Positions 13,356 through 60,400 of a stretch of DNA of 60,400 bases are shown in pieces. The number at the start of each line of letters is the position of its first letter. The first letter of the stretch is position 1. Made by a program: the position numbers and the translations under genes. The notes below the pieces were generated by a model that was given only the letters and a program-made list of their open reading frames with translations, had not been told where the DNA came from and did not search any database. The stretch is from a virus: IMG/VR virus record IMGVR_UViG_3300045988_043806. One strand, given 5' to 3'.

Positions 13356-14222
13356 CTATGCAATGGTACAAGCCGGAGCGCAGCGATAAGCCCAGTTCGC
13401 GCCGTTGTAGTCGACGTAACCATCGGAGTGCACACACCACGTACGGTTCGAGGTGCTCCGAGAAGCCGAGCGGGTCCAGTGTCGGCAGGTGTTGCCATCC
13501 TCTGTGAATTTCACTCTGTTCGCCTTATTTTCATAAAATTCGTATGGTGTTTCCTCCGGGTCGAACTCCTCTTTTGAGAGTAGGAAAAACAAATCTTCTG
13601 TCTGTTCTCCATTGCTGTTGTTTTTCTTCACTTTTGCCAGGTAAGGAATGAGGTCTGCAAATCTTTCTTTGAACTCATCACTCTGTAAATATTCTCTCAG
13701 CTCGGAATCCGCCCATACATTACTGCCGTAATCTCCTTTTGTATCGAACTCTCTCGCCTCAATCGCTACATGAGCCTGGATTGTCATGCTATGGTCAAGC
13801 GTTTTGTCCGCAAGTTCCTCCACATCAAAGCCGATAACATCGTATGGAACCTCTTTTCCGTCAAACATAATCCAGATTGTATCTCCAACCGAAACATGGT
13901 TCTGGATTTCTCCGTTTCTAATAAGTGCTCTTAATTCATCCAGCGTAAATGTTTTCTTGTATTTATGTGTGATGTTCAGCTCTTTTCCGGTATCTTTTGA
14001 CTTTTCATGCTCCTGGTCCGAATCCACACCAGGCATGGCGCAGTTGCAAAATGGATGCAACGGTTCTGCGCATACTGCCTCTGCTAATTTCTGTGCCGTT
14101 TCGTTTACTCTTCCTGCCGCAAATTCCAGAAACGCATCTCTTTCCCTCTTGATAAACTTCTTGCTGCCTACTGCCTCCATACGGAATCCGTATGCACTTA
14201 ATCTGATTGAATTGATACTCAT
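13356..14222 (-). CDS. DGR variable protein 2 (C-type-lectin-fold/DUF6273-like, non-structural context)
   Basis: AGGAGG RBS before ATG 14222. The C-terminus WTRSASRSTSNRTWCVHSDGYVDYNGANWAYRCAPACTIA aligns to the TR with adenine-only differences. No signal peptide seen. Confidence 0.8.
   Translation of the reverse strand: MSINSIRLSAYGFRMEAVGSKKFIKRERDAFLEFAAGRVNETAQKLAEAVCAEPLHPFCNCAMPGVDSDQEHEKSKDTGKELNITHKYKKTFTLDELRALIRNGEIQNHVSVGDTIWIMFDGKEVPYDVIGFDVEELADKTLDHSMTIQAHVAIEAREFDTKGDYGSNVWADSELREYLQSDEFKERFADLIPYLAKVKKNNSNGEQTEDLFFLLSKEEFDPEETPYEFYENKANRVKFTEDGNTCRHWTRSASRSTSNRTWCVHSDGYVDYNGANWAYRCAPACTIA
13368..13472 (-). repeat. DGR variable region VR2 (105 nt)
   Basis: Aligns codon for codon with TR 27564..27668. 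All 14 mismatches are at TR adenines. Confidence 0.85.
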
Positions 14223-14238
14223 TCTTTTTGTCCTCCTG

Positions 14239-14550
14239 TTATTCGATATGTTTTGTTTCTCCTGCAAAGCAATTTCCGCAGAACCGGTATATGCCTTTCT
14301 CCACCCTTTCAAAAGTCGGGAAAGTGTCACGCTCCGTTCCCATCTCATCGTCCATCACTCTGCTGTATGGCGCACCCACCTGCAAGTATCCATCTCTGTA
14401 TATTCTTGGTGTTGTGACATCCATAAAATATATGAATACGCTTTCATCCACCAGGTCACCCGGTTTCGCATAATCATACCAGCTATATTGGCAATTACCG
14501 TTTGCCTCTCTTTCCCAGTCTTTCATGGTCTTGAGCTTTCTCCGATGCAT
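14239..14550 (-). CDS. hypothetical protein
   Basis: ORF in operon context. The start is uncertain (14550 or 14526). No confident domain. Confidence 0.45.
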   Translation of the reverse strand: MHRRKLKTMKDWEREANGNCQYSWYDYAKPGDLVDESVFIYFMDVTTPRIYRDGYLQVGAPYSRVMDDEMGTERDTFPTFERVEKGIYRFCGNCFAGETKHIE

Positions 14551-26191: not shown

Positions 26192-26351
26192 CGTCTACGC
26201 CTCCCATTTCGTTTTTATCTTCTGTCGGAATATCAATATCTGCCATCATAGCCAGATAATCAATCATGGCTGCCTGCTCTGCAACTGTTGCACGCAGGTT
26301 TTCATTCGCCCGGCTATCATAAATACTGCCGTCCATCTGCTTAATTCTCAT
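26184..26351 (-). CDS. small hypothetical protein (55 aa)
   Basis: Hand-translated MRIKQMDGSIYDSRANENLRATVAEQAAMIDYLAMMADIDIPTEDKNEMGGVDDE. The start overlaps the RT stop and the stop overlaps the next start. Confidence 0.35.
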   Translation of the reverse strand: MRIKQMDGSIYDSRANENLRATVAEQAAMIDYLAMMADIDIPTEDKNEMGGVDDE

Positions 26352-27462
26352 TGTCAGTTACCTCCGTTTCTTGGTCATTCCATAAACTCTTGTAAAATTT
26401 GTCCATGCGGCGTATAAGGTGAAAGGAATTTCCTTTGCTCGCATGGCTCCTCCATGCTTGATAACAGTCATCTACTTTCGCCTTTGTGATTTCGCCTCTT
26501 TTGGCTTTCCTCACCAGCTTACGGAGCTTTCTGCGCCTTTCTTTGACTTTCTCCGAGCTGACTGTCATGATAACTTTTCCAGTATCCGTCAACCGATACT
26601 TGAATCCCAGGAATGTAAAGCCCTCTTTAATGCTGAATACTTTCGTTTTCTTCGAGTTGTACTCCATTCCCCTGCTTGCAAGGTATTTCTCATTTATCAA
26701 TTTTAGGTTTTCCAGATATTCTTTTGATGGATGGAACAGTGTTGAATCATCCATATATCTGCCGTAATCCTCGGCTTCGGTCTGCTCCCTCATCATATGG
26801 TCGTACTCACTTAGAAATGTAATACCGGCTATCTGTATCATTTGGCTGCCAGGATTATATCCCACATCCCCTGCGTACTGTCCGTCAAGAACAGTTGCAG
26901 TCTGCTCATACAGCCAATCGTCCAGTTTATCCCGGAACAATTCTTTTGTAAGGTCATGCCTCATATTCGGGTAATATCCATGAATGTCGCATTGTAAACC
27001 ATAGAAATCTGTGCCATATTTCCGATACATCCTTTGCAGAAATATTTTCATTCTATCCCTTGCATCGTCCGTTCCCTTTCCTTTCTGGCAAGCCCAATTA
27101 TCACGAATGAGCTGTTTTGTCATAATCGGGTATAGAGCGTTATCATTCAAACTCCGCTGATATACCCTATCCCGAAAGCAAGTACTTATTATGTCCCTGG
27201 GTTTCGGTGATGTTATCTTAAATTGTGTTGTCGGCCTTGCTTTATAGGTTCCCTTTTCAAGCTCTTCGCTCAATTTGTAAGTTTCCTCCATGCTGTTAAG
27301 CACATAATGAGCAACCGAACCTTTCCAGGTAACCCCTTTCTTACTTTTCATCATTGAATCGTACAAGGCATCGAAACCGATTATCTCTTCTCTATCCACG
27401 TAATTTGAATTATTGTCCATAACGTATATAGCAGTACCAGTCCTTTCAAGGGCTGACTGCAT
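26341..27462 (-). CDS. DGR reverse transcriptase
   Basis: 373 aa. YGRYMDDSTLF (YMDD box) and GSQMIQ in the motif-4 region. Located about 100 nt downstream of the TR. Confidence 0.9.
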   Translation of the reverse strand: MQSALERTGTAIYVMDNNSNYVDREEIIGFDALYDSMMKSKKGVTWKGSVAHYVLNSMEETYKLSEELEKGTYKARPTTQFKITSPKPRDIISTCFRDRVYQRSLNDNALYPIMTKQLIRDNWACQKGKGTDDARDRMKIFLQRMYRKYGTDFYGLQCDIHGYYPNMRHDLTKELFRDKLDDWLYEQTATVLDGQYAGDVGYNPGSQMIQIAGITFLSEYDHMMREQTEAEDYGRYMDDSTLFHPSKEYLENLKLINEKYLASRGMEYNSKKTKVFSIKEGFTFLGFKYRLTDTGKVIMTVSSEKVKERRRKLRKLVRKAKRGEITKAKVDDCYQAWRSHASKGNSFHLIRRMDKFYKSLWNDQETEVTDNEN

Positions 27463-27563
27463 CGCTACAGTGGTGTTTTGCCATTCGGCAAGGATAAGAA
27501 CTTCTTGTGTTAGATTGGTCGGAGCACCACCTCTGTGAGGCAGCCGTATGTCCTAAATACCAC

Positions 27564-27683
27564 ACAATCCGGAGCGCAGCGATTAGCCCAGTTCGCGTTG
27601 TTGTTGTTGACGTTACCATCGGAGTTCACATACCACGTATTGTTCGAGTTGCTCCGATTAGCCGAGCGCAGGCGGACGTTCTG
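27564..27683 (-). repeat. DGR template repeat (TR, ~120 nt, non-coding RNA template)
   Basis: AAC/AAT-rich (about 32 adenines by my count). Identical to VR1 and VR2 except at adenines. Lacks the downstream hairpin found after both VRs. Confidence 0.85.
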
Positions 27684-27714
27684 CGTTTCAGTCCTCATCC
27701 CTGTATAATAAACA

Positions 27715-28187: not shown

Positions 28188-28206
28188 GATTAAAACGATT
28201 ATTCGA

Positions 28207-29427
28207 TTAGCAAAGCCAACAAGCCGGAGCGCAGCGACAAGCCCAGTTCGCGCCGCCGTAGCCGCTGACGGCACCATCGGAGCTCACATACCACGTACCG
28301 TCCGAGGTGCCCCGATAAGCCGAGCGCAGGCGGACGCTCTGCGGCGAAGTGTGATTCTCAATCGCAAATGTACGAATCTGCGGATAAGTCTTGTACTGCT
28401 GCATTTTCTCCGCCATACCGGATGCACGTTTCCAGTATTCCCATACATCGTCCTCGCCAGCTTTCTGCGGATTGATTGACATTGCCTCCAAACTCGGCAG
28501 GAACACTTTATCGTAAGTTACCTCAATACCGTCCGTATCTCCATTGTCTGTAAGAGTGTTCTTCCAGGTGGATACTTTCGTTGCTTTCAATCTCTTTGTA
28601 AATTCCTCATCGAATCCGGTAAGAAATCCATGCTTTTCTTTGAGCTGGTCCGGTGTACGGTCAAAATTGTGCTGTGGTGTCCACCACTTACCGTTTGCCT
28701 CTTCGGAATTAAGCCACTGACGCATAGCACTCTGCGCCCAACGGTTATATCCGTAAGCTGTGCTCTGCAATCCATTCAATGGCGATGTCGGTTTGAAAGA
28801 TAATGTACCAAGGGCGGTTCCGCCTGTTCCCTCCACCATCGCTACAGTTTCGATAGGGTCTGTTGCCGTATTGCTCTCGAATGAATATACTTTCCATTCG
28901 CTCAGGCTGACATCCGGTGCTCCGTATAATCCTGCAAGCTGTCCTTTCGCTGGTACAGGCTTCGTAAGCGTGAACTGGTATGTTTTACCCTTTACGCAGT
29001 TATTTCCCCAGGTATCACCGATAATGACATTGTAGGTTCCTGCCGGTAACTGCTTCTCGCAATACTTAAACGCCTGGAACTGGTTGAACTGCACGCCAAA
29101 AGGCGTTGCATAATGCCACTGTACCAACATTCCCGGTACAGTTTCGCCATCCGCAAGTGTGACATCTCCAAAATGTACCACATCAAGCGGACACTCATAT
29201 GTTTTTCCGGTTGCTTTGTCGGTCCATGGTAAAATAATCTGGTCGCCATAATTAAAAACCTGGCTTGCATTTCCTGACTGAACCACTGCAAACACATCTG
29301 CAATGGAAGTCGGTTTGTAATTGTACCCACTGGCAATCGCTGTGAGTAATTCGTTCTGTTTCTCCATCAATCCAAGAAACTGCTGACCGGTTTTATCCAA
29401 CAGCATCGGTTCTGTAATTTTGCTCAT
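28207..29427 (-). CDS. DGR variable protein 1: tail-fibre/receptor-binding protein with C-type-lectin-fold VR
   Basis: 406 aa. Last structural gene after the baseplate genes. The C-terminus SVRLRSAYRGTSDGTWYVSSDGAVSGYGGANWACRCAPACWLC aligns to the TR. Confidence 0.85.
   Translation of the reverse strand: MSKITEPMLLDKTGQQFLGLMEKQNELLTAIASGYNYKPTSIADVFAVVQSGNASQVFNYGDQIILPWTDKATGKTYECPLDVVHFGDVTLADGETVPGMLVQWHYATPFGVQFNQFQAFKYCEKQLPAGTYNVIIGDTWGNNCVKGKTYQFTLTKPVPAKGQLAGLYGAPDVSLSEWKVYSFESNTATDPIETVAMVEGTGGTALGTLSFKPTSPLNGLQSTAYGYNRWAQSAMRQWLNSEEANGKWWTPQHNFDRTPDQLKEKHGFLTGFDEEFTKRLKATKVSTWKNTLTDNGDTDGIEVTYDKVFLPSLEAMSINPQKAGEDDVWEYWKRASGMAEKMQQYKTYPQIRTFAIENHTSPQSVRLRSAYRGTSDGTWYVSSDGAVSGYGGANWACRCAPACWLC
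28219..28341 (-). repeat. DGR variable region VR1 (123 nt)
   Basis: Aligns with TR 27564..27683. All alignable mismatches are at TR adenines. One extra codon lies within the (AAC)4 block. Confidence 0.85.
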
Positions 29428-29657: not shown

Positions 29658-30041
29658 TTAGAAAACATCATCCAGCGTGTATGTCATTTCAATATCGTTA
29701 TCCTTTCCCTTTCTGGTAAAGGTCTTGATACAAACAATATCGCCGTTGGCATCATACAGCCCAATTTCACTGATATACTGTCCGGCAAGCTCTGATTCTC
29801 CAAGCGTGCATTCGTATCTGCATGTGGTTTCTGTGATAAAGTTATAGCCGCTGATAGGCTTACGGAGCAGTTCCTTTTTCAGTGCTGTCTGTGTTTCAGA
29901 CGGAGAAATAACATTTCCTGCGCTGTCTACTCCTCCAGAGCCAAATGCCATGCCGACAATTTTAGGAAGTGTAATCGCTCCTGCTCTTGCCTGTACCATT
30001 TTCTTTCTGGCTGATTTTGTAATAATTACATTCTGTGCCAT
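29658..30041 (-). CDS. tail-collar fibre-like protein (DUF3751-like)
   Basis: 127 aa. AFGSGGVDSAGNVISPSETQTALKKELLRK...ISEIGLYDANGDIV pattern. Confidence 0.55.
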   Translation of the reverse strand: MAQNVIITKSARKKMVQARAGAITLPKIVGMAFGSGGVDSAGNVISPSETQTALKKELLRKPISGYNFITETTCRYECTLGESELAGQYISEIGLYDANGDIVCIKTFTRKGKDNDIEMTYTLDDVF

Positions 30042-30043
30042 TC

Positions 30044-31087
30044 TTAGATAGTCTCCTTTCTGTTTAATGAATTAAGCAATCTTGAACCGTTCATTTTCAA
30101 TGAACCATCAAAATATGCCAGATTCCTTTTCACTGTGCAGGTAGCATTTCCATAACTTTCAGAAATGGATGCCACCGGTATTTTGATATTTGCCGTAGTC
30201 TTATTGTCTGCTCTGCAATAATTCATCAGCAAGTTTCCATCCATCGGAACAGAGCCATCAAAAAACAAAGACTGCCAGTTAAATGCTTTCGCACTGACAG
30301 TCTGCTTCTCAATATGCATTTTTTCTGATAGCGGAACTTTCGCCCTCGCTGTCATTCGCTCAATATCCAACGTTTCTGCAATCCGAAATTCGCCCTCTTT
30401 GTATTTCACTCCGAGTCGCATTTCATATTCGATAGCCGCATCCATGAGATGTGAACCATCCCACAACTCGGAACCATCAAACCATCGAGCTTTCCAGAAC
30501 GGTATTTTGAATAGCAACCCTATATTGCTGACCATGAATTTTTCAGAAAACACAATTTCGAACATCGAATAGTCATTCACAAAATATGTTGTATGTGATT
30601 CCTTTAATTTATCAATCAGCTTTCGGACTTTCTTTGAATCCAGCGTGCCATCGCCATTGAAAAAAGCCTTAAATACATTCGGGTGAGGCGGCTTATACTT
30701 CAATGGTCCTGCATCGTGGCAATCTGCTATATGTACCGTAAATCCGGTTGCATTTTCCAGATACCGCTCCATAATGTACGGTGTCATTGGCAAATGATAA
30801 TCTCTCTTTTCGTATATCGCTTGTCTGCGCTCCTGGTAAGAAAGATTTTCCTGCACCGGCAATCCCCATTTTATTTCATGCCAGCATAATCCCCAGGTCG
30901 CTGTTTCCGGGAAAAACTGTTCCGGTAATTCCTCTGCTAGCTTCAAAGCCTTGTCATATTCCAACCCCATGACCTGAAACATCCATTTGCCGACATACGA
31001 TTTATCGTAAAATCCGGGTGTCACATAGGACAGCATTTTTAAGGCGCTCTCGCTCGTCGGGAATAATTCCAATTCTTCATCTGTCAT
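30044..31087 (-). CDS. baseplate/tail protein, XkdU/DUF2313-like
   Basis: 347 aa. N-terminal LSYVTPGFYDKS...FFPETATWGLCWHEIKWGLP pattern. Confidence 0.6.
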   Translation of the reverse strand: MTDEELELFPTSESALKMLSYVTPGFYDKSYVGKWMFQVMGLEYDKALKLAEELPEQFFPETATWGLCWHEIKWGLPVQENLSYQERRQAIYEKRDYHLPMTPYIMERYLENATGFTVHIADCHDAGPLKYKPPHPNVFKAFFNGDGTLDSKKVRKLIDKLKESHTTYFVNDYSMFEIVFSEKFMVSNIGLLFKIPFWKARWFDGSELWDGSHLMDAAIEYEMRLGVKYKEGEFRIAETLDIERMTARAKVPLSEKMHIEKQTVSAKAFNWQSLFFDGSVPMDGNLLMNYCRADNKTTANIKIPVASISESYGNATCTVKRNLAYFDGSLKMNGSRLLNSLNRKETI

Positions 31088-49939: not shown

Positions 49940-51346
49940 TTAGTACCTCCCTAGCCGCCGTTTGGCAGCTTCAGTAATGTCACTGGGTATTTCTCCATCG
50001 CCATCCTTTGGCTCTTTCCCTGCCGCCGTTGCGCTTTCTGGCGGTTGGTTCTGCGTCTGTTGTGTTGCTCTTACCTCATCAGGTGTTCTTGTGTCAGATG
50101 TTCTCTCCGGTAAATGTCCCACCTGTCTAATGTAATCTTCCAAACCATCATCGGGAACCAGTACACCGATACCGGTCATATCTTTGATAAATGCAGAAAC
50201 TTTCGTGATGTCTGCATCCTCAATATCCCCATGCGTCATTTTGGGATAATCTGTGATGCCCTTGAAATGCTCTCCGTTAATATCAATCAAAGCCGGGATT
50301 GCCTGGCTGTTGAATGTTTCGCAGATAATATCAAGAAATGCTCCGCACGCCATTGAGAACAGCTCCGTTTTATCGGAACTCAACGCCCAACTGCCGTTTT
50401 GCTCATGCCCCAAAAATATAAAATCCGCCAGTACCGTCATTGCAATACGGTTATCATAGCGGTTGATGATTGCGTTTGTATCAAATTGTCGGCTGCCTCC
50501 GGTACTTAATAGTTCCAGTTTATAGCCATCTGGAAGAACAACGCCCTCCATCTCATCCCTGCGGATGTTCCTAACCTGCGTCTGTAATCCGTTCAGGATT
50601 TCTTGCGCCTGCTCATCGTCAGGATTCCAGATATCTAAATCTGACGGTCCATATATTACCGGAAGTCCTGCAAGGTCACGTTCAATACCGATGCCCTCAA
50701 CCTCCTGTATTCTTCTCTTGAAATACCAGGAACGGTACGCATTACGCAAAATAGACCTGCCCTCCGGGTTGTCCTTTCGGCTCTTGGTTCGGAAAAGCAA
50801 TGCCTTTTCAATCGGAATCGTGTACAGGTTGTAAGATGGAGGCGGCATCTGCGTCATTCCTTTCAGATTGTCCTCATCGTCATACTCCCATTGGTAAAGG
50901 GTTTCCTGCGCTCGTATCGGAAGTTTTCTCCATCCGATAAGCCCATCTGCATATTTACTTCGTGTTCTACCGTCTTTTGTCCTCCCCATTCTTCGTTTGT
51001 AAACAATCTCGTGATAGCTCCATCCGAATGTGAGGAATGACAAGATTTCTGATATGGTGTCAGTCCATGTGTTCTGCATATCATTCATGCAGCTTTCGAC
51101 AAACTCTGCCGCATCAATATCTGCCTGGCTATCTCCTCCAGGTTCCACGTTCCAATCAGTCTGTCGAATCAACATCTCGATAGCAAAAAGGATAGCGCCT
51201 ACAACATCGTCATTTTCAGACATTTCTCTGTAAGCCTCTATTCCTCGTTTTCCTCTAAGCTCATGCAGGAACTCTTCGTAAATCACTCCACCATATCGCC
51301 TTTGTCCTATTCGTCCAATTTCTTTGTTATCGGCCATCTTTACCAC
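49940..51346 (-). CDS. portal protein
   Basis: 468 aa, directly downstream of terL. N-terminal YREMSENDDVVGAILFAIEMLIRQ pattern of DUF935/Mu gp29-like portals. Confidence 0.8.
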   Translation of the reverse strand: MVKMADNKEIGRIGQRRYGGVIYEEFLHELRGKRGIEAYREMSENDDVVGAILFAIEMLIRQTDWNVEPGGDSQADIDAAEFVESCMNDMQNTWTDTISEILSFLTFGWSYHEIVYKRRMGRTKDGRTRSKYADGLIGWRKLPIRAQETLYQWEYDDEDNLKGMTQMPPPSYNLYTIPIEKALLFRTKSRKDNPEGRSILRNAYRSWYFKRRIQEVEGIGIERDLAGLPVIYGPSDLDIWNPDDEQAQEILNGLQTQVRNIRRDEMEGVVLPDGYKLELLSTGGSRQFDTNAIINRYDNRIAMTVLADFIFLGHEQNGSWALSSDKTELFSMACGAFLDIICETFNSQAIPALIDINGEHFKGITDYPKMTHGDIEDADITKVSAFIKDMTGIGVLVPDDGLEDYIRQVGHLPERTSDTRTPDEVRATQQTQNQPPESATAAGKEPKDGDGEIPSDITEAAKRRLGRY

Positions 51347-51347
51347 C

Positions 51348-52793
51348 TCACTTTCGCCAGTAACTTTCTTTGCTCAATCCTCCATCTGTCGGAGGTGCGG
51401 AATATGTATTTCCGCTTTCAAGTTCTGTAAACGCCGAACTGCTCGCATCCACCATATCCTTGAACTTGCTTTCCGGGAAACTCTCAACCTGGTTGAAATA
51501 CATCTCATTCCAGGGAGCTATCAGCACATCAACGTTGCCTTTATCCATTCCCTCAAGTCCTAACCACTGTGCAGAAAACGGCTCTGCTCTTGTAACCTTA
51601 TCCCCGGATTCAGGGATGCACTTAACAGTAAAACCGGCTAAGAATTTTAAGAAACTCTGCGCCTGGTCCTTTCCTGCCTGTCCTGGGTCTTGCGGAAGTC
51701 TTGTGAAAACTCTTTTGTGCTTTGCCCTATCGGTAATGCAGGTCTGCTTTATTATCTCCCGGACATCTGCCGAGCTAAGTCTTTTATTGATAACATCGGC
51801 AATGATATAACGTCCGTTCCTCCTCTTGCCAATAAGAACACCGGCTGTATATGCCGGGTCGCCCTTTTCATCCTCGGATGTGGCTGCAAGGTCCCATCCT
51901 CTCGCCCACTTGATAACGTCTGTCGGTAATTCTTCCAGCATATTTACCTTTGTGCGGCGGAACATCAAGCCTGCGGCTGCCTTAATCTTCCAGTTGCCTC
52001 GGAGAAGCCTTTCTCTCTCAACCTCCGTCAATGCTAACAGGTTGGCTTTGTATCCTGGGTTTTCTTTCATCAAGATTTTGTTATCATCCAACGTGGACAT
52101 AATGAATGTGACAGATTTCGGCATTGTTTCTGCCTCTTCCTCGCCTATATTGGCATCAAGGGCAATCTGTACAGCCTCTTTCCTTGTGGCAGCCCACATA
52201 ACAGTTTCGTTAATGCGGACGAACCATCTCTTCTTGCCGGAACGTTCCTTTATCGGATAGCCGGTGTCCTGGTCTATCCACCATGAAATAAAATCAGCAA
52301 CCCACGAATCCGCATCTGGATTGCAAGTTGCTCTCATGTATGGCTTTACTCCGCAAACACTACGGTTTCGGGATAGCATATAAAAAAACTGTTTCTCGGA
52401 AAAATGGGTAAGCTCATCAAATCCTATCATGGTTATCTGCGAACCTTGCCATTTCTGCAAATCATTATCTCGGTTGATATAGTCAAATGCAACTGTCATA
52501 CCGTTTTTGAACTTCCACATACCTGCGCTGTATCTTCCATCGGCTCCCTTTATATCTCCATATACGTCATTGCTCGTATCCCACAAGCCGCCCTGGTTGA
52601 ATATCTGCTTATATTCGTGTCGGAATATTACAGCACCAAACCGTTTGTTGTTCTTATACCTCAAAGGCTCAATCAGCAATCCGTATGACTTTCCGCCTCC
52701 TGCGGCTCCACCGTAAATAGCAATATCTGCTGTTGTTGAAAGGAATTTTTCTTGCGGTCCTTTCTGCGGCCGTATGACTTTGATATTACTCAT
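51348..52793 (-). CDS. terL: terminase large subunit
   Basis: 481 aa. Walker A YGGAAGGGKS, GFDELTHF Walker B-like motif, C-terminal nuclease region. Confidence 0.9.
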   Translation of the reverse strand: MSNIKVIRPQKGPQEKFLSTTADIAIYGGAAGGGKSYGLLIEPLRYKNNKRFGAVIFRHEYKQIFNQGGLWDTSNDVYGDIKGADGRYSAGMWKFKNGMTVAFDYINRDNDLQKWQGSQITMIGFDELTHFSEKQFFYMLSRNRSVCGVKPYMRATCNPDADSWVADFISWWIDQDTGYPIKERSGKKRWFVRINETVMWAATRKEAVQIALDANIGEEEAETMPKSVTFIMSTLDDNKILMKENPGYKANLLALTEVERERLLRGNWKIKAAAGLMFRRTKVNMLEELPTDVIKWARGWDLAATSEDEKGDPAYTAGVLIGKRRNGRYIIADVINKRLSSADVREIIKQTCITDRAKHKRVFTRLPQDPGQAGKDQAQSFLKFLAGFTVKCIPESGDKVTRAEPFSAQWLGLEGMDKGNVDVLIAPWNEMYFNQVESFPESKFKDMVDASSSAFTELESGNTYSAPPTDGGLSKESYWRK

Positions 52794-53253
52794 CGTCCTC
52801 GCCCTCCTTTTCTGGCAGATATATTTCTACTGGCGTTCCACCGGTCATGCCTCCATCCTCTTCGGCTTTCTTTGCCTCTCTGTCCTGTTTCTTCCGGTAT
52901 GCAAATTCTTTTTCTTGTAGCTGTTGCGTTGGGTTCTGCCCTGCGGTATCTCTTAGGAACTTTGCAGCATTTACATTTCCATTCGCCGCCTGCACCAACA
53001 TTGCCGCCATCACTCCCATACTGTAGTCCATATCCTCTTCGTCAATCCCTAAAGCTGTGAGCGTGGCTTTCATGGTCGATTGCTTATTCGATACCGGCAT
53101 ATTCAACAGCATTTCGGCTGCCTTTCGCATATCCCTTTTCTTACGCCTCGCTGCCCCGGATGCTTTACCTCCTGCTGTGGCGATTTTTCGTTGCTCGCTC
53201 TTTGTTCGGCGGTTCATAGGTATCAGATTTTCGTCATTTGCCAATGCCACCAC
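52786..53253 (-). CDS. terS: terminase small subunit
   Basis: 155 aa. NLIPMNRRTKSEQRKIATAGGKASG N-terminus, typical of terS. Overlaps the terL start. The GTG start is uncertain. Confidence 0.6.
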   Translation of the reverse strand: MVALANDENLIPMNRRTKSEQRKIATAGGKASGAARRKKRDMRKAAEMLLNMPVSNKQSTMKATLTALGIDEEDMDYSMGVMAAMLVQAANGNVNAAKFLRDTAGQNPTQQLQEKEFAYRKKQDREAKKAEEDGGMTGGTPVEIYLPEKEGEDDE

Positions 53254-53280: not shown

Positions 53281-54243
53281 TTAAATAAAGCAAGCGTCCT
53301 TTCTCGCCTGCTCCATCTTTTTGACCTCCAGATTAGGGGCTGTCATTCTACAAGGTATGTCGCACATTGACATATCCGTTACCGCCGCCATTTTCTTTGC
53401 CAGAATATCTTCGTCCATGATATGACCTATAATCTGATACGGCTTATGACAGCAGTACATGACTTCGCCTTTTTCATTTAAAGCCATCTGCGCCCAGCTT
53501 GCGGTGCATCTCTCTTCCTGCCTGTCGAGTAATCCCCATTTGAAATTGAGCGTCACCCTTTCATCATCCATCGCCATATCCGATACGATTTTCTTTATTT
53601 CCTCCGCATCTCTCTTTTTCCTCTCATCCCTGTAGTAACTTCCTGCGGTGCTTTCCACTGGTCTGAAAACCATGTAGTCAACGTCCAGGTCCTTATTTGC
53701 ATCGTAAAATCTCTTTACATCCTCCGGCTCTTTTACAAGCTGTTGGATTCCAAGAGATGTGCCAGGACTGTTTTCTTTTTTCCATGCTGCATATGCTTTT
53801 ATGTTCTCCCGGACTGTTTCATATGCCGCCACGCCTCGCAACTGCTCATAGCTTTCATTGCTGTACGCATCAAGGGACACTTTCAAGTAATTCGGTTTGA
53901 CCTTTACCAGCTTATTGAAATTCGTATTTATTCCCCACTGGAAATTGTTCTCGGTAAGCCATCCTGCAATCTTTTCAAAATCAGGATTGATGGTCGGCTC
54001 TCCTCCACCGGTCAGTATAAATCCCTGTACGCCCATAACTGCCAGTCTTTTTGCGTATGTGATAAAATCCTCATATCTCATTGCCTGCGCCCCTGTATCC
54101 AGCTCCCACCGTCCGTAGGTGCAATAGGGACATCTGTTATTGCAATAATTTGTGAGGAATATATCTGCTGTTATGGGTTTCTTTTCCCCTGCAATCCTGT
54201 CTATATGGCTTAGCATCTTTTCGCCTGTTATGTTTTTCTCCAT
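53281..54243 (-). CDS. radical SAM enzyme with C-terminal Cys cluster (SPASM/twitch-like)
   Basis: 320 aa. CNNRCPYC (CxxxCxxC), GGGEPT, and C-terminal C...CC...CDIPC cysteines. Confidence 0.85.
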   Translation of the reverse strand: MEKNITGEKMLSHIDRIAGEKKPITADIFLTNYCNNRCPYCTYGRWELDTGAQAMRYEDFITYAKRLAVMGVQGFILTGGGEPTINPDFEKIAGWLTENNFQWGINTNFNKLVKVKPNYLKVSLDAYSNESYEQLRGVAAYETVRENIKAYAAWKKENSPGTSLGIQQLVKEPEDVKRFYDANKDLDVDYMVFRPVESTAGSYYRDERKKRDAEEIKKIVSDMAMDDERVTLNFKWGLLDRQEERCTASWAQMALNEKGEVMYCCHKPYQIIGHIMDEDILAKKMAAVTDMSMCDIPCRMTAPNLEVKKMEQARKDACFI

Positions 54244-54246
54244 TTT

Positions 54247-55113
54247 CTAGGTATCCTCCTTTCTCTCTTTCCTCCACTTTTCATTCAGGATTTTCGGGGC
54301 TGTGTGTTCCCAGTTTATCCTGTGGTGTATTCTCTTGTGCGTGGTATACATCATGCTGACTTTTACAGCGCTCGGCATACTCATAATCGCATAAAAGGTT
54401 TTTAGGTACGTGCCGCCCTCCTTATACGCATCTGTCATTCCTCCCGACAGGCTTTGGGTTGGCAACTGTACCACGCAATATTGTGTATTTGAAAAGAACA
54501 GGTGTCCCCGGCTGCTCAATGTTGTATATGTCACAACATCTTCGTTCATGGTTCCCCTGTACTCTATCGGCGTATCTGTCTTGCAAAAGAAACTGTTCAT
54601 CGCCTTTCGTAATAATCCTTTGTGGAAGTTTCCTCCGTCTACTCCTCCAACGAAATCTCCTCCCTGGCAAAATGCCACTGTATCAGCTCCCGACACCTCC
54701 AGGAACTGAATCATATCTTCAAACACTCTGTCAAAATCATGCGATGGCTTATATTTCAGCTTTCCATCTTCCTCGTACCGGTAATCAATGCTTTTGTAAT
54801 CATCATCCAGCATCAAGAAGTATTTCAGCCCCAGTTCTTCCGCAATCCTCCAACATTCATTGCGAGCATAAATGATTGCCCTGTGGTCGTTGAAATTATC
54901 CATCGTATCTGCCCGGTCATATGCTGCCTGCTTATCAAATATAATCACTCGGTCTGCCCCGAAGTTCTTTTTATATTCTTCTGCCTGCTCGTCCTCATCA
55001 TCTATGATGAAATATATCTTACCGGTATATCCTGCCTTTTTAATTGCAGGAACCGTAACCACATTATCGGCTCGCCCATGTGTCAGTATGAAAACTGCGA
55101 AATCATTCCTCAT
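54247..55113 (-). CDS. glycosyltransferase-like protein (GT-A-like, DDD motif; family uncertain)
   Basis: Start at MRNDFAVFILTHGR (55113), overlapping the ParB stop by 11 nt. Has FIIDDEDE and FLMLDDDY acidic motifs. Resembles the TET-associated/GREB1-like GT family by recollection only. Confidence 0.4.
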   Translation of the reverse strand: MRNDFAVFILTHGRADNVVTVPAIKKAGYTGKIYFIIDDEDEQAEEYKKNFGADRVIIFDKQAAYDRADTMDNFNDHRAIIYARNECWRIAEELGLKYFLMLDDDYKSIDYRYEEDGKLKYKPSHDFDRVFEDMIQFLEVSGADTVAFCQGGDFVGGVDGGNFHKGLLRKAMNSFFCKTDTPIEYRGTMNEDVVTYTTLSSRGHLFFSNTQYCVVQLPTQSLSGGMTDAYKEGGTYLKTFYAIMSMPSAVKVSMMYTTHKRIHHRINWEHTAPKILNEKWRKERKEDT

Positions 55114-55858
55114 CGGCTTCGCCCTCCATAATGTCTGTGATGTCAGTTGCCAACTGCACATATCCGTTTGCTATGGCATCATTCACATCAATTATTACGA
55201 GTGCGGACTTTTCAAACAATTTCTGCACTTCCGGCTCTGCGTGTGCGTAATACTCTGCGATATTCCGGTAATTAAATACATTATGTCTGCGTGCCGCCTG
55301 TATCAGGAACTCCCTTATCTCCTCCGGGATGTCTGTGGCTTCAACTTCCTGTATCAGCTCATCCGCCTTGCTGCTATCCAGCATATCAGATATTTCCGGG
55401 CACTCTCCTGTAATTTCATACTGCGGTATTTTGACTTTCAGAGTGTACTTATCGTCCTGCATCTCCTCTCCCAGTTCATCCTCCCCAACAGAAAATCCGA
55501 ACTGGCTCATATCAATGTTTATGATTCCCTGCATTTCTTTTCCCAGTAAGTCCTCGTCCCACTCTGCCAGCTCTGCGGTCTTGTTGTCTGCCAGCCGGAA
55601 CGCCTTAATCTGCTCGTCCGATAAATCATCTGCACTGATACATGGTATGTCGGTGATTCCCAGCTTCTTTGCCGCTTTATATCGGGTGTGTCCTGCGACA
55701 ATCACTCCATCTTTGTCAATGATAACTGGATTTTTGAATCCAAACTGCTGAATAGATGCTGCTACTGCATCCACCGCCATATCATTATGTCTTGGGTTGT
55801 TCTCATACGGTTTCAGTTCTCCAATCTTCCGCATGACAATTTCAATGCTGCTGTTCAT
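55103..55858 (-). CDS. ParB N-terminal (ParB/Srx nuclease-like) domain protein without a methyltransferase domain
   Basis: 251 aa. LKPYENNPRHND and GHTRYKAAKKLG motifs. The C-terminal FNYRNIAEYYAHAEPEVQKLFEKSALVIID segment normally links ParB to an MTase domain in phage ParB-methylases. Confidence 0.8.
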   Translation of the reverse strand: MNSSIEIVMRKIGELKPYENNPRHNDMAVDAVAASIQQFGFKNPVIIDKDGVIVAGHTRYKAAKKLGITDIPCISADDLSDEQIKAFRLADNKTAELAEWDEDLLGKEMQGIINIDMSQFGFSVGEDELGEEMQDDKYTLKVKIPQYEITGECPEISDMLDSSKADELIQEVEATDIPEEIREFLIQAARRHNVFNYRNIAEYYAHAEPEVQKLFEKSALVIIDVNDAIANGYVQLATDITDIMEGEADEE

Positions 55859-55992
55859 TTATTGCCTCGCTCCTTTCATTTCCCCGGCTCCTGCGTCTGT
55901 TCATCCTCTGCGCTCCTCATTCCGGACAAAACAAAAAGCCATACCATGTTCAGATATGACTTTTCATGTTACTGATATTTAATTTTAGGAGC

Positions 55993-56015
55993 GTGGCAGG
56001 TATTTCTCCTGCCAC
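55993..56015 (-). promoter_or_regulatory. stem-loop in the late-operon leader
   Basis: GTGGCAGG-N7-CCTGCCAC, a perfect 8-bp stem, about 135 nt upstream of the ParB-domain gene. Confidence 0.5.
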
Positions 56016-56082
56016 ACGAGAAAAAGAACGAGTACAGCAGCCGCATTCTTTACAATCAAAACTTCTTCTGATTGCACCATAC

Positions 56083-56111
56083 ACTATATCATCGGTCGAA
56101 TTGACGGTCAA
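56083..56111 (-). promoter_or_regulatory. candidate sigma-A-type promoter for the late operon
   Basis: Minus strand TTGACC(56111..56106)-N17-TATAGT(56088..56083). Confidence 0.45.
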
Positions 56112-56149
56112 AGGAAAAAAAACGGATTCAAAATAAGCCGAACGGTTTT

Positions 56150-56752
56150 TTATTTATCCATCGGGTTCCCAAAATCATGCAAAATCATAGCATCTAAGCC
56201 GAAAAATAGCACCGTCAGGTCATTTCGTGCCTCTTTTGCATCTTTCTGGATTGTGGACAATTCCATGTTATAAAATTCCGCAATTTCCTTTGTGCTCTTC
56301 TTTTTCTCTCTGTCAAGGTACATCATCTGAATGACTTTCCATCTGCGCTGTATAATCTCATTCGATGAGGTTTCGCACTCTCTCTGGTACACTTCCAGCA
56401 TCCGGTCTACGTGTGCAAGCATAAATTTTACTGCATTGATTCCCTTTAACTGCCTATGTAACGTTTTATCTTCATCAAAGATTCTGAATCCGTACAGAAC
56501 ATCCATATTTACGATGCTCTCATCCACCTGCTCTGCCTCATCAATAGTGCAGACTGCCTTTTCTGCATAGTCTTTCAGCTTCGTGTAATTCTCTAACAGC
56601 TTTTTGGTATTATACAGGAGGGTTTTCTTTTCCTGCGCAATACTCTTTTTTCTTGCCTTTTCGCTTCTCTCAACTGCTTTATCGGCAGCCTCCTCACAGA
56701 GTGCTTTTATTTCCTCTTTCGTGAGTGATACTCTTCTTTCTGCTTTTCCCAC
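56150..56752 (-). CDS. late-gene transcriptional regulator candidate (ArpU/RinA- or sigma region-4-like HTH)
   Basis: 200 aa. C-terminal STKEIAEFYNMELSTIQKDAKEARNDL HTH. Lies upstream of the packaging operon. Confidence 0.5.
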   Translation of the reverse strand: MGKAERRVSLTKEEIKALCEEAADKAVERSEKARKKSIAQEKKTLLYNTKKLLENYTKLKDYAEKAVCTIDEAEQVDESIVNMDVLYGFRIFDEDKTLHRQLKGINAVKFMLAHVDRMLEVYQRECETSSNEIIQRRWKVIQMMYLDREKKKSTKEIAEFYNMELSTIQKDAKEARNDLTVLFFGLDAMILHDFGNPMDK

Positions 56753-58679: not shown

Positions 58680-58860
58680 ATCGTGAACTACCCATTGTCT
58701 AAAGCCAATGGGCTTCCTGCTTCCCTGACCTCGTAACCTACTATCTCCACAGGCGTTAATTCGGGCAGTTCCTGCCCTATGTTGTTATTCCTTTTATGCT
58801 ATTTGTCTTAATCCTTCTTCCAGTATATTCTTCGCCGCATTGATATCCCTGTCATGATTC
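58680..58860 (-). ncRNA. candidate TnpB guide RNA (omega/reRNA) scaffold spanning the tnpB 3' end and RE
   Basis: Hairpins GGGCAG-gaa-CTGCCC (58763..58777) and CCCATTG-N8-CAATGGG (58691..58712) sit downstream of the tnpB stop, where such RNAs are encoded in IS200/IS605 elements. The boundaries are guesses. Confidence 0.35.
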
Positions 58861-59896
58861 GTTCCACAGACGGGACATATCCATTCCCTTACTGTCAGAT
58901 TTTTCGTCTCTGTATTTTGGTATCCACAGACTGAACACAACTGACTACTGGCATAGAAGGTATCTATTTTGACATATTCCCTTCCATTCCATTTTGCCTT
59001 GTATTCCAACTGCCTTGTCAGCTCATACCATGATACATCACTTATTGACTTTGCCAGATGATGATTTTTTACCATATTCTTTATCTGCAAATTCTCCGAG
59101 ACTATCACTTGGTTTTCGCTGATAATCTCATGGGATATCTTGTGAAGATAATCTTTTCTGGTATTTGTTATTTTCTCATGGCATAATGCTATCTTTTTCT
59201 TTGTTTTGTAGTAATTTTGACTTTTTTCTCTTTATGGGCTAACTGCCTTTGCAGTTTTTCCAGTTTCTTCTCGTTTTTTCTGATAATTTTGGGATTTTCG
59301 TATTTCTTTCCACCAGAAGTAATACATAAATCCTTAATACCTAAATCGATTCCTGTATTTTGGGTTGTATGTGGCAGTTCCACATGTTCTGTTTCCACTA
59401 AAACCGATACATAATATTTCCCACTCGGCACTTGTGATATCGTTGCTGATTTTATCTGCCCGCTAAACTTTCTATGCAGTTTTACTTTTACGCCTTTTAA
59501 TTTAGGCAATTTTACTTTGTTTCCATCGAAATCTACTGTTATGTTGCCATTCGTAAAATTTGTTGTATATGATTTATGATTATCATGTTTACTCTTAAAC
59601 TTTGGATAACCTGCATGCTCCCTAAAAAATTTCTGATATGAACTGTCCATGTTATAAATCGCATTTGTTAAAGCAAACTTATCCACTTCTTTCAGCCATT
59701 CATACTCTTTCTTTAATTCCCTGTTGCAGTAATTATTACAATCTGTTTTGCTGACAGATTTTTTCTCTTTTTCGTATCTTTCTTTCCGATATGCAAGTGT
59801 CTGATTATACACAAAACGGCAACAGCCAAATGTTTTTTCTATCTGTACTTTCTGCTCATTATTGGGATATATTCTGTATTTATATGCTTTTAACAT
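58794..59896 (-). pseudogene. tnpB: tnpB (RNA-guided nuclease, OrfB_IS605) interrupted by a frameshift at an A6 run
   Basis: N-terminal ORF (59896..59189, KAYKYRIYPNNEQ...) and C-terminal ORF (59108..58794, [12 protein letters not shown]...[18 protein letters not shown]) are in different frames. The frames overlap at 59189..59231, and one extra A at 59222..59227 would join them. Confidence 0.8.
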
Positions 59897-59914
59897 TCGC
59901 TGCCACCTTCTTTC

Positions 59915-60334
59915 TTAGCCTTGATTTTCGATATACTTTTTTAGCATTTCTTCTGATACATTTCCTACACTACAAGCAAAATAACCATCTGTCCAAAATG
60001 TATGTTCTTTCCAGAAATGCTTCCGCAAATAATTCGGATAGCGTTTCCATATATGGTAAGTCGTATAACTTTTCATTAGGTTTACAATTTTACTCACCGA
60101 CATTGTAGGTTCAGTTTCTATCATGTAGTGAATATGGTCTTTGTCAGTTTCCATGTATTTGATAATAACTTTGTGCTTTTGACATATCTCATATGAAAAC
60201 TGCTTTATATCATCTGATACCTGTTGCGAAACCAGTAATTTCTTCCTATATTTGCAGACGAAAATAATGTGGTATTGTAATAAATATTTGTGTCTGTTTT
60301 TAGATTTCCATGTTCCCATATCATTAGCATACAA
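59915..60334 (-). CDS. tnpA: IS200/IS605 Y1 (HUH) transposase
   Basis: 139 aa. HUH motif HIHYMIE and catalytic-Tyr region TDGYFACSVG. Confidence 0.9.
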   Translation of the reverse strand: MYANDMGTWKSKNRHKYLLQYHIIFVCKYRKKLLVSQQVSDDIKQFSYEICQKHKVIIKYMETDKDHIHYMIETEPTMSVSKIVNLMKSYTTYHIWKRYPNYLRKHFWKEHTFWTDGYFACSVGNVSEEMLKKYIENQG

Positions 60335-60345: not shown

Positions 60346-60400
60346 TTTTGGCTACCTTAACCCACCGTCTAAAGCCAGTGGGATTGCGGTAGCCTTATTT
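60346..60400. repeat. 55-nt terminal direct repeat (copy of 1..55)
   Basis: Exact identity with window bases 1..55. Confidence 0.95.

Follow-up and report, generated by a model that had tools for sequence, protein, structure and literature searches.

The window, meaning the whole stretch of 60,400 nucleotides analyzed here, holds the genome of a complete, circular, temperate phage of 60.3 kb with a gut Clostridium as host; completeness and circularity follow from the exact 55-bp overlap of the two window ends. Three tightly packed genes lie on its minus strand immediately 5′ of the small terminase subunit gene terS, in the order ParB-like protein, glycosyltransferase (TAGT), radical SAM enzyme (rSAM) and terS. 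The original prediction had placed the three genes correctly. The first two overlap by 11 nt, and gaps of 3 and 27 nt follow between TAGT and rSAM and between rSAM and terS. In the direction of transcription, the features are as follows.

56150-56752, minus strand: 200-aa protein upstream of the module
55859-56149, minus strand: intergenic region of 291 nt, 5′ of the ParB gene, containing a terminator-like, T-rich stretch as well as a promoter-like site (56111-56083)
55103-55858, minus strand: ParB/Srx-like partner protein, 251 aa, pI 4.3 (Pfam ParB_N and phrog_620)
55139-55456, minus strand: TAGT-specific partner domain, forming the C-terminal part (about residues 135-240) of the ParB-like protein
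54247-55113, minus strand: TAGT-family GT-A glycosyltransferase, 288 aa counted from M17 (PF20691 and phrog_842)
53281-54243, minus strand: radical SAM enzyme, 320 aa, with a predicted Twitch-like C-terminal auxiliary-cluster domain (PF04055)
52786-53253, minus strand: small terminase subunit terS (phrog_2412), downstream end of the module
51348-52793: terL (Terminase_6N/6C), next after terS
49940-51346: portal gene, after terL

The 200-aa protein matches phrog_1558 (E=9e-37) and bears a weak sigma-70 region-4-like HTH, for which the Pfam Sigma70_r4 match stays under its cutoff; it might be a late-gene activator. The intergenic region is probably the start of the late operon. Its promoter-like site (TTGACC-17-TATAGT) agrees with the consensus at 10/12 positions, whereby such sites do not exceed the number expected by chance in this region. 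Phage phi jlb1 carries a "transcriptional activator" at a relative position equivalent to that of the 200-aa protein.

Pfam scans of the 83 ORFs of the complete genome—one scan covering the best 25 of 31 matched families—detect no TET/JBP enzyme, hydroxymethylase or kinase, in agreement with the original prediction, and also no DNA methylase and no supplier of a hydroxylated acceptor, be it a TET/JBP-type 5mYOX, a dCMP/dUMP hydroxymethylase or a first glycosyltransferase. The same scans find neither other 7-deazaguanine genes nor ParA. PADLOC defense models yield matches to MTase_II (N-terminal region) and weak, generic matches to pVip only, without membership in a defense system.

The three proteins

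In the ParB-like protein, an acidic linker joins the N-terminal ParB_N domain to a conserved C-terminal domain. The protein matches phrog_620 over its full length (E=4.7e-66) and ParB_N (PF02195) at residues 11-92 with 31.1 bits (cutoff 26.3); the G-x-x-R box is present as a GHTR motif within the stretch AGHTRYKAA, which is conserved in the alignment. AF2 models the N-domain with a pLDDT of about 77-89 and the C-domain with low confidence (pLDDT <50). By sequence, the N-domain most resembles that of phage fusions of ParB and a methyltransferase, with phrog_498 (E=2e-42) and PADLOC MTase_II (1e-25) aligning to residues 5-137 only. A ParB N-terminal domain protein without a methyltransferase had been predicted and is indeed present. 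The accompanying idea of a truncated ParB-methylase with a replaced methylase, whose C-terminal segment (FNYRNIAEYYAHA...) would be a pre-methylase linker, turned out to be wrong: the C-terminal domain (IPQYEITGECP...RRHNVFNYRNIAEYYAHA...SALVIIDVNDAIANGY), which gives no match in Pfam, is found beside the TAGT subfamily only. Searching phages by tblastn returns it in 28 phage records, with a close TAGT in 28/28, and it adjoins TAGT in 78/80 diverse IMG/VR TAGT loci; the C-terminal 116 aa as a query retrieve TAGT-partner proteins only. Vibrio phage pv27 encodes the partner domain alone as a 139-aa protein ahead of TAGT, and in-frame ParB-TAGT fusions occur in independent assemblies (a 543-aa ORF in L013 and L014; P0128 and P0132; one IMG/VR locus). 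Such linkage marks a dedicated partner domain of the window's TAGT subfamily, in viruses of bacteria and archaea alike.

Two other identities of this protein were rejected. A canonical partition ParB (Spo0J/Noc) reaches 44.5 bits with TIGR00180 (cutoff 58.45), aligned over the N-terminal part only, and Pfam detects no HTH family. A ParB-DNA methyltransferase fusion would need a methyltransferase domain, which is lacking, and the C-terminal domain is of the TAGT-partner type; the PMBT4 homologue is labeled "adenine-specific methyltransferase", apparently through annotation transfer based on the N-domain.

For TAGT, the longest ORF spans 54247-55161 (304 aa). As homologues begin at M17, whose ATG lies at 55113, the length is taken as 288 aa, which is also that of homologue P0122, a representative of 1015 member sequences. 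The protein matches PF20691 ("TET-associated glycosyltransferase", TAGT) with E=5e-47 and 160.9 bits (cutoff 27.5) over profile positions 1-200 of 205, and phrog_842 with E=6e-64. Ten TAGT sequences from bacterial and archaeal viruses all share R14, D103-D105, and E191-D192; the acidic motifs on which the predicted 288-aa glycosyltransferase had been based are hence real, being conserved across distant homologues. The R...DDD...ED(Y/F) signature of phage GT-A enzymes, whose TAGT-type members put sugars on DNA (bioRxiv 10.1101/2023.12.21.572611), is intact. PF20691 also takes in the T2/T6 enzyme responsible for glucosylating glucosyl-hmC DNA, and a 2026 study lists a "solitary TAGT" without defined function in 288/753 GT-encoding phage genomes (PMC13216743).

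The radical SAM enzyme, of an oxygen-sensitive kind, matches PF04055 with 50.7 bits (cutoff 29.5), and its AF2 model shows a partial TIM barrel (pLDDT 88) with the core starting at about residue 25. The motifs noticed at the outset, CX3CX2C (C34-X3-C38-X2-C41), GGGEP (79-83), and a C-terminal cysteine cluster (C246, C264, C265, C294, C298), proved to be invariant across the family. The cluster's pattern, C-X17-CC...C-X3-C, has Twitch-like spacing and resembles that of the sugar-oxidizing and sugar-epimerizing radical SAM enzymes BtrN and HygY. Pfam SPASM matches weakly (15.8 bits, under its cutoff of 21.5), and no NCBIfam model attains its cutoff. Foldseek lists DesII, SuiB, BlsE, SkfB, viperin, and anSME as top PDB matches, with DesII (E=1e-11) and BlsE (E=2e-10; best mutual TM of 0.64/0.63) as the best structural neighbors; the similarity is moderate (TM 0.55-0.64, about 15% identity to DesII/BlsE), and the RiPP maturases SuiB and SkfB as well as viperin score nearly equally, which speaks against a sugar-tailoring role. 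DesII acts on TDP-sugars in the desosamine pathway and BlsE on cytosyl-glucuronic acid in that of blasticidin S. Membership in the DesII/BlsE family was rejected, as NCBIfam rSAM_desII reaches just 22.3 bits (cutoff 450) and the likeness is at fold level only. A RiPP maturase of the SuiB/SkfB type was rejected as well: the protein has no RRE-sized N-terminal extension, all maturase models of NCBIfam stay far under their cutoffs, and no precursor-peptide or small ORF lies within the 3- and 27-nt gaps flanking the gene. Around the trio, no RiPP or polysaccharide context was found, such as the original prediction had named among the findings that would contradict it. Spore photoproduct lyase, a DNA-acting radical SAM enzyme, is absent from the top 50 structural matches. 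The protein seems to represent a new radical SAM family that fills the third slot of the module in anaerobes.

Conservation and the third slot

The rSAM gene lies beside TAGT and ParB in 84/90 informative loci (93%), which span at least three terminase/portal backbones and include the variant orders ParB-TAGT-TAGT-rSAM and ParB-rSAM-TAGT. The neighborhood, whose conservation had been proposed as a check, is thus well preserved. In modules with two TAGT genes, the copy beside rSAM is always the orthologue of the window's TAGT. Hosts of trio-bearing phages are strict anaerobes in every case. Four of the 90 informative loci (L019, L076, L126, and L131) contain rSAM without detected ParB or TAGT; in L126 and L131, it is part of the head-morphogenesis module, between the portal/MuF and scaffold/capsid genes, and L131 bears a weak Glycos_transf_2 (family-2 GT) ORF 3′ of the capsid gene.

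Counted from TAGT, rSAM is found in just 1/80 diverse loci, and ParB-TAGT modules of 44-53% identity occur without it in phages of E. coli, Lactobacillus, Nocardia, Haloarcula, and Vibrio. The glycosyltransferase and rSAM, implicitly treated as equals in the original prediction, differ in status: the ParB(CTD)-TAGT pair is a widespread conserved core, usually without a third gene, and rSAM an accessory restricted to phages whose hosts are strict anaerobes. The pair is abundant in human-gut phages, and the Rac-like ynaK prophages of E. coli, in which it consists of ynaK and its neighbor, carry it in 1580/5426 genomes. It is located immediately 5′ of the terminase genes in most loci, adjoins a sliding-clamp gene in 9/78 loci, and lies within the replication module of Vibrio phage pv27. 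Accessory genes (HNH, MTase) are frequent upstream of terS in the sampled loci.

A GalE/RmlB/LegB-like SDR directly follows TAGT in 6/78 loci, with L162 showing the order ParB-TAGT-SDR-195aa-TerL. By gene order, slot X in ParB-TAGT-X-terminase is equivalent, being occupied by rSAM here and by an NAD-dependent NDP-sugar epimerase/dehydratase elsewhere.

Proposed acceptor and sugar chemistry

The reading we favor, and to which we commit only tentatively, is a late-expressed nucleic-acid glycosylation module, with the ParB-like protein as partner or activator of TAGT and rSAM as sugar-tailoring enzyme. The role of the ParB-like protein is suggested by its C-terminal domain, a constant companion of the window's TAGT subfamily that in some relatives forms a single protein with it, and by an analogy: on double-stranded DNA, the thymine dioxygenases of phages are activated by ParB-like proteins. 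TAGT would transfer a sugar from a host nucleotide-sugar to phage DNA near the time of replication and packaging, and the glycosylated DNA might be shielded from host nucleases, which would make the module an anti-restriction system. Using its auxiliary Fe-S cluster, rSAM might remodel a sugar substrate—either the nucleotide-sugar donor or the already attached sugar—by oxidation, epimerization, deoxygenation, or decarboxylation, and would take the role of the NAD-dependent NDP-sugar epimerase/dehydratase in the equivalent slot of other phages. From the proposed DNA hypermodification or anti-restriction module, the functional linkage, the start of the late/packaging operon, and a glycosyltransferase from a known phage DNA-GT family have stood; that modified DNA is the product is what we infer from them. 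We know of no modified nucleoside reported for any phage bearing a ParB-TAGT(-rSAM) module.

To our knowledge, all characterized TAGT-type enzymes glycosylate a hydroxyl group, and phage DNA glycosylation is known solely downstream of hydroxymethyl-pyrimidines. Since the genome makes no hydroxymethyl base, an acceptor on ordinary DNA is left unexplained. With DNA as the target, a chemistry other than that of the T-even and TET/5mYOX pathways would be required, as the original prediction had likewise reasoned. A more specific proposal is that ParB(CTD)-TAGT directly glycosylates ordinary, non-hydroxymethylated phage DNA at a canonical base or the backbone, while rSAM remodels the sugar in gut-anaerobe phages; we regard this as possible but rather doubtful.

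A target other than DNA appears unlikely. Here, the glycosyltransferase and the rSAM-tailored sugar would modify either a cell-envelope polymer or a protein, be it of the virion, the terminase, or the ParB-like partner itself, with capsid glycosylation of mycobacteriophages and the prophage enzyme TarP acting on teichoic acid as models. The location at the head of the structural/late operon would suit such a target, as would the L126 and L131 rSAM genes between portal/MuF and scaffold/capsid, including the weak Glycos_transf_2 after the L131 capsid gene, and TarP being the top PDB match of phage GT-A enzymes in a study of these. The acidity of the trio proteins points the same way, and the mildly acidic TAGT and rSAM (pI 5.9 and 5.7, respectively) speak against the nucleic-acid glycosylation module. 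However, the obligatory partner bears a ParB/Srx N-domain of the kind fused to DNA methyltransferases, the catalytic motif is of the DNA-acting JGT/TAGT type, and the pair also occurs within replication modules, near sliding clamps, primase, and helicase. Its presence in E. coli, Lactobacillus, Nocardia, and Haloarcula—with wholly different envelopes and differing virion types—disfavors an envelope- or capsid-specific acceptor.

We consider it quite improbable that rSAM serves as an anaerobic substitute for TET/JBP. It would abstract a hydrogen at the C5-methyl of thymine or another base position, the auxiliary cluster would oxidize the radical, and capture of water would give a hydroxylated base such as 5hmU. 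Glycosylation of this base by TAGT would then yield a product resembling base J with no need for oxygen, and rSAM would be activated on duplex DNA by the ParB-like protein, similar to ParB-dependent 5mYOX. Indeed, phage thymine dioxygenases have proven ParB-like activators (PMC13229309), and members of the rSAM family occur solely in phages infecting strict anaerobes, a setting in which the O2-dependent 5mYOX cannot function. TAGT is by definition a TET-associated family, and the genome is without TET in the Pfam scans (one covering the best 25 of 31 families). Furthermore, the predicted auxiliary cluster suits a two-electron oxidation, and the rSAM-adjacent TAGT is always the orthologous copy. 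Nevertheless, ParB-TAGT homologues (44-53% identity) exist without any oxidizing enzyme in phages of aerobes or facultative hosts, so that a pre-made hydroxymethyl base is evidently not needed by the window's TAGT subfamily. The equivalent slot elsewhere holds an NDP-sugar SDR, TET_JBP is not among the families listed for the 78 loci, and the DNA-acting spore photoproduct lyase is missing from the top 50 structural matches. Hydroxylation of a DNA base by a radical SAM enzyme has no precedent known to us.

Very improbable is an rSAM independent of the glycosyltransferase—viperin-like or QueE-like on free nucleotides, or a peptide maturase, co-travelling in a moron-rich spot 5′ of terS—for which the generic pVip match (E=5e-8), the viperin structures, SuiB and SkfB within the top structural matches, the four loci without ParB-TAGT, and the accessory genes often upstream of terS might be cited, but against which stand the position beside TAGT in 93% of loci on at least three phage backbones, retained despite the changed order ParB-rSAM-TAGT, the pVip/viperin scores far under their cutoffs (NCBIfam viperin model: 23 bits versus 180), the lack of a precursor-peptide ORF and of an RRE-sized N-terminal extension in the 320-aa protein, and the lack of other 7-deazaguanine genes in the genome (Pfam scans, one of the best 25 of 31 families).

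The analysis contributes three points: an obligatory, previously unnamed partner domain of these glycosyltransferases, usually on a ParB-like protein; the high frequency of the pair, in human-gut phages as well as in Rac-like prophages of E. coli; and a variable third slot for putative sugar-tailoring enzymes (rSAM, SDR). If the product is on DNA, it would represent a new modification chemistry with bearing on restriction evasion, sequencing artifacts in the gut virome, and enzymatic DNA-labeling tools. Direct glycosylation of ordinary DNA, if true, would define a new hypermodification class without a TET, thymidylate-synthase-like, or other precursor step, and the modification would extend to many phages of the human gut and, through the ynaK-linked pair, to somewhere between a fifth and a third of E. 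coli genomes. A product not on DNA would mean an unexpected non-DNA role for the ParB-like partner. The E. coli version (ynaK-TAGT) makes the acceptor question directly testable.

Comparison with known systems

The window's TAGT shares Pfam family PF20691, well over the cutoff, with the T2/T6 beta-glucosyl-HMC-alpha-glucosyltransferase and the 5mYOX-associated phage GT-A enzymes; common to them are also the R...DDD...ED signature, the phage origin, and the frequent proximity to ParB-like and terminase genes (PMC13216743; bioRxiv 10.1101/2023.12.21.572611). The family is related to the trypanosome base-J glucosyltransferase JGT. These phage enzymes, however, use a pre-made hydroxyl, which belongs to hmC (made by dCMP hydroxymethylase, or by C5-MTase together with TET), to hmU (made by 5mYOX), or to a first sugar; its suppliers are missing here. 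The situation corresponds to that of a "solitary TAGT" (PMC13216743), but with a dedicated partner domain and rSAM.

The ParB-dependent phage thymine dioxygenases ParB176/5mYOX176 (O'Toole et al., PNAS 2026; PMC13229309) show that a phage enzyme modifying DNA bases can have a ParB-like activator, and provide a mechanistic model, in which the partner is required for activity on duplex DNA. By description, proteins of the ParB176 type are short and ParB-like, combine a nucleotide-binding-type domain at the N-terminus with a C-terminal domain, have no recognizable HTH, and are encoded beside a phage DNA-modifying enzyme with terminase genes frequently nearby—all as found here. The difference is in the partner enzyme, which is a glycosyltransferase here and not an Fe/2OG dioxygenase. 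ParB-dependent 5mYOX are linked chiefly with kinases, AADTs, and amidotransferases (PMC13229309). The phage ParB-DNA methyltransferase fusions (phrog_498; MTase_II) have a closely similar N-terminal ParB/Srx domain and a comparable position in temperate phage genomes, close to the terminase genes, but the match ends at residue 137 and the window's protein has no MTase domain.

With DesII, BlsE, and the Twitch enzymes BtrN and HygY, the window's rSAM shares the radical SAM core and a C-terminal cysteine cluster of Twitch-domain spacing, and an analogous class of sugar enzyme—the SDR NDP-sugar epimerase/dehydratase—takes the equivalent gene slot in other phages. The identity to DesII and BlsE, however, is only about 15%, with RiPP maturases and viperin almost equal in structure. 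Subclass II phage DNA-glycosylation clusters combine a glycosyltransferase with a sugar epimerase (bioRxiv 10.1101/2023.12.21.572611). Those clusters carry C5-MTase and 5mYOX for the formation of 5hmC, whereas the window has no base-oxidizing enzyme and a radical SAM enzyme as putative tailoring enzyme. The pairing of a DNA-type GT-A with a sugar-diversifying enzyme is nevertheless a logic that the six ParB-TAGT-SDR loci follow.

The gene set upstream of terS and its genome

Directly upstream of terS, the window carries genes for a ParB-like protein, a glycosyltransferase (GT) and a radical SAM enzyme (rSAM), here referred to as the trio:

55103-55858, minus strand: ParB-like protein, 251 aa (Pfam ParB_N, 31.1 bits vs a cutoff of 26.3)
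54247-55113, minus strand: TAGT glycosyltransferase, 288 aa counted from M17, the longest ORF starting at 55161 (PF20691, E=5e-47)
53281-54243, minus strand: rSAM, 320 aa (Pfam Radical_SAM, 50.7 bits vs 29.5)
52786-53253, minus strand: terS, directly after the trio and followed by terL and the portal gene

The ORFs and Pfam matches bear out the tightly packed three-gene set of the original prediction—the ParB and GT genes overlap by 11 nt, and gaps of 3 nt and 27 nt separate GT from rSAM and rSAM from terS. The acidic GT motifs and the Cys and GGGEP motifs of the rSAM, which it had also pointed out, are real and conserved among homologues. PF20691 is named "TET-associated glycosyltransferase" (TAGT) in Pfam, and a SPASM match of the rSAM stays sub-threshold. 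Isoelectric points are uninformative as a proxy for DNA binding, with family medians between 5.9 and 8.2. Upstream of the trio, a small HTH protein (phrog_1558) precedes a 291-nt intergenic region, in which a T-rich stretch resembles a terminator and another site a promoter. Given this region and the order trio–terS–terL–portal, the trio appears to open the late/packaging operon; a consensus scan for promoters and terminators near the trio carries little weight in this regard, as its counts were not above chance.

Positions 1-55 and 60346-60400 are identical, and this exact 55-bp terminal overlap marks a complete circular genome of ~60.3 kb (about 60,345 bp). It belongs to a temperate myovirus with serine integrase, RecT, SSB, RusA, sheath, baseplate and Mu-type portal. 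MT835491.1, an unannotated human-faecal phage, shares 97–99% identity with the window, and Clostridium sp. OF09-36 carries a 99%-identical copy of the trio locus. Among the matches listed in the Pfam scans of 83 ORFs, there is no TET/JBP (the O2-dependent dioxygenases making hydroxymethyl bases), no DNA methyltransferase, no thymidylate-synthase-like hydroxymethylase and no kinase. Since the genome is complete, the predicted absence of TET/JBP, hydroxymethylase and kinase holds genome-wide.

PADLOC assigns the trio to no known defence system. Elsewhere in the window, the product of 19701-20375 matches DarA_C ('Defence against restriction A', E=5.6e-22) and may provide this phage with a further anti-restriction function. 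The genome also bears a diversity-generating retroelement, with its reverse transcriptase at 26341-27462 (minus strand) and a template repeat at ~27550-27695. One variable repeat lies in the C-terminus of the ORF 28207-29427 (~28203-28350), and a second, remote one in the C-terminus of a DUF6273 ORF at 13356-14348 (~13358-13482); mismatches between template and variable repeats fall at template adenines. Beside RusA, an IS200/IS605 element (58794-60334) is missing from the otherwise 97–99% identical MT835491.1; it consists of tnpA (59915-60334) and two tnpB pieces (58794-59108 and 59189-59896), and this split tnpB suggests a decaying element.

The ParB(CTD)–TAGT core pair

The C-terminal domain of the ParB-like protein (CTD, about residues 135-240) had been taken for the linker that precedes the methylase in phage ParB-methyltransferases. 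This assignment does not hold: methyltransferase models of PHROG and PADLOC align to residues 5-137 only. The last 116 residues match 28 phage records, all of which (28/28) also hold a close TAGT homologue. These comprise E. coli vB_EcoS phages, Salmonella SPF_0923, Nocardia NTR1, the Lactobacillus phages phi jlb1, JNU_P11, c5, phiLdb and PMBT4, the haloarchaeal virus HHTV-2 and Vibrio jumbo phages. As the domain finds only TAGT-partner proteins, the idea of a truncated ParB-methylase was rejected. In Lactobacillus phage PMBT4 (MG913376.1, ~29660-30420), the label 'adenine-specific methyltransferase' is attached to the ParB(CTD) protein encoded ahead of TAGT; this protein apparently has ~250 aa without a methylase domain, and hence the label was probably carried over from the ParB N-domain.

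The ParB(CTD)–TAGT pair is the conserved core of the module. A CTD protein adjoins TAGT in 78 of 80 diverse IMG/VR TAGT loci, and in-frame ParB–TAGT fusions are seen in independent assemblies. Vibrio phage pv27 (L133, 6462-7891; L-numbers denote loci compared with the window) even encodes a 139-aa CTD-only protein lacking the ParB N-domain, which precedes TAGT in a replication module that also encodes SSB, exonuclease, primase and helicase. The E. coli version consists of ynaK and its neighbour in Rac-like prophages, annotated as 'hypothetical protein' (L003, 5244-6960, phage vB_EcoS-683R6). Of 5426 complete genomes, 1580 contain this version, with at least 80% of the pair present in 889 of these, and it offers a tractable model for the uncharacterised core. 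An AF2 model of the window's ParB-like protein, made to probe for an architecture of N- and C-domain lacking an HTH, reaches a mean pLDDT of 54.5, with the C-domain below 50.

The radical SAM enzyme and the slot after TAGT

Close rSAM homologues number in the hundreds in gut metagenomes; at E<=1e-30, only ~48 cluster representatives were retrieved among 1.84 billion. More distant matches in Selenomonadaceae, Phycisphaerae and others (23–35% identity, N-terminal core only) were judged generic rSAM similarity. Wherever a host of the rSAM loci could be identified, it was a strict anaerobe—Blautia, Lachnospiraceae, Muriventricola, Phascolarctobacterium and Eubacteriales. Conservation of the neighbourhood was assessed in 90 informative loci from metagenomes, reference genomes and IMG/VR, in which the sequence extends at least 2.6 kb upstream of the rSAM gene. 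The trio is together in 84 of them, TAGT directly adjoining the rSAM and a ParB gene being present. It is spread over three or more distinct terminase/portal backbones and also occurs in the variant orders ParB–TAGT–TAGT–rSAM and ParB–rSAM–TAGT.

Four of the six remaining loci show an rSAM without any detected ParB or TAGT. In L019 (6986-7948), an orphan rSAM with 60% identity and replaced C-terminal Cys is chromosomal in a Clostridiales MAG, between ABC-transporter genes and threonyl-tRNA synthetase, with surrounding phage genes absent. L076 has rSAM–terS downstream of SbcCD-like genes. In L126 and L131, an rSAM 54–56% identical to that of the window lies between portal/MuF and scaffold/capsid genes; L131 (2196-7668) reads portal, MuF, rSAM, scaffold, capsid and an ORF with a weak Glycos_transf_2 (family-2 GT) match.

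The AF2 model of the rSAM is confident (pLDDT 88), and in the PDB it comes closest to DesII (E=1e-11), SuiB, BlsE (TM 0.64/0.63), SkfB, viperin and anSME. The substrates of DesII and BlsE are nucleotide- or nucleoside-linked sugars. Fold similarity to these sugar-acting enzymes is matched almost equally by SuiB, SkfB and viperin. Searching the PDB by sequence yielded weak generic matches only, every match of a BFVD fold search was an uncharacterised phage rSAM, and no NCBIfam cutoff was reached by either the window rSAM or ten distant homologues. The spacing of the invariant cysteines (C246-X17-C264-C265...C294-X3-C298) resembles that of a Twitch domain, with one cysteine to spare; among Twitch enzymes, BtrN and HygY catalyse the oxidation or epimerisation of sugars. 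A peptide (RiPP) pathway with a nearby substrate gene, the outcome that would have spoken against a modification module, was looked for and appears unlikely, as the rSAM lacks an N-terminal extension of RRE size and its vicinity is free of precursor-peptide ORFs.

Most ParB–TAGT modules have no third gene, the terminase coming next, and an rSAM is present in only 1 of 80 diverse TAGT loci. A Pfam scan of the gene right after TAGT in 78 loci found a sliding clamp (DNA_pol3_beta) in nine, a GalE/RmlB/LegB-type NAD-dependent NDP-sugar epimerase/dehydratase (SDR) in six and a DNA methylase in one. Sequence inspection pointed to clamp-like genes at this position in L139, L140, L148, L149, L152, L172, L178, L186, L193 and L205. 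The six SDR loci (L157, L158, L162, L183, L185 and L203) continue from ParB–TAGT–SDR into terminase genes; in L162 (ParB–TAGT–SDR–195 aa–TerL), the SDR occupies exactly the slot of the window rSAM.

A possible DNA glycosylation module

Our preferred reading, held tentatively and at somewhat less than even confidence, is a late-expressed DNA glycosylation module. Hereby, the ParB-like protein would be partner or activator of the GT, TAGT would move a sugar from a host nucleotide-sugar, and the rSAM would act as accessory sugar-tailoring enzyme—an anaerobe-compatible counterpart of the SDR that holds the equal slot elsewhere. Of the original prediction of a hypermodification or anti-restriction module, the conserved and linked trio is supported, and the idea that it replaces a methylase is not. 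The main weakness of DNA glycosylation is the acceptor: characterised relatives all use a hydroxyl, and no pathway to a hydroxymethyl base is encoded here.

A protein or the cell envelope as glycosylation target, as the head-module rSAM variants L126 and L131 might indicate, is unlikely in view of the ParB domain on the partner, the replication-module contexts and the wide host range of the pair. That the rSAM stands in for TET/JBP without needing oxygen seems quite improbable, because close ParB–TAGT pairs occur without any oxidising enzyme, in aerobes too. An rSAM functionally independent of the GT is hardly to be expected with 93% adjacency to TAGT.

For T4 alpha-GT, glucosylation coupled to the replisome has been described, which the clamp gene beside TAGT recalls. 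A literature search on rSAM, GT, ParB and phage hypermodification found nothing linking rSAM enzymes to such modules. Among the members of PF20691 is the T2/T6 enzyme adding a second glucose to glucosyl-hmC; of 753 phage genomes that encode a GT, 288 are reported to carry a 'solitary' TAGT of undefined function (PMC13216743). Phage GT-A enzymes of the TAGT type resemble the base-J glucosyltransferase, and a sugar epimerase accompanies some of the phage GT-A enzymes (bioRxiv 10.1101/2023.12.21.572611). For one subclass of phage thymine dioxygenases, ParB-like proteins serve as activators on duplex DNA (PMC13229309). Set against the known kind of phage DNA glycosylation module that has a ParB-like partner, the TAGT partner domain and the putatively accessory rSAM family are new.
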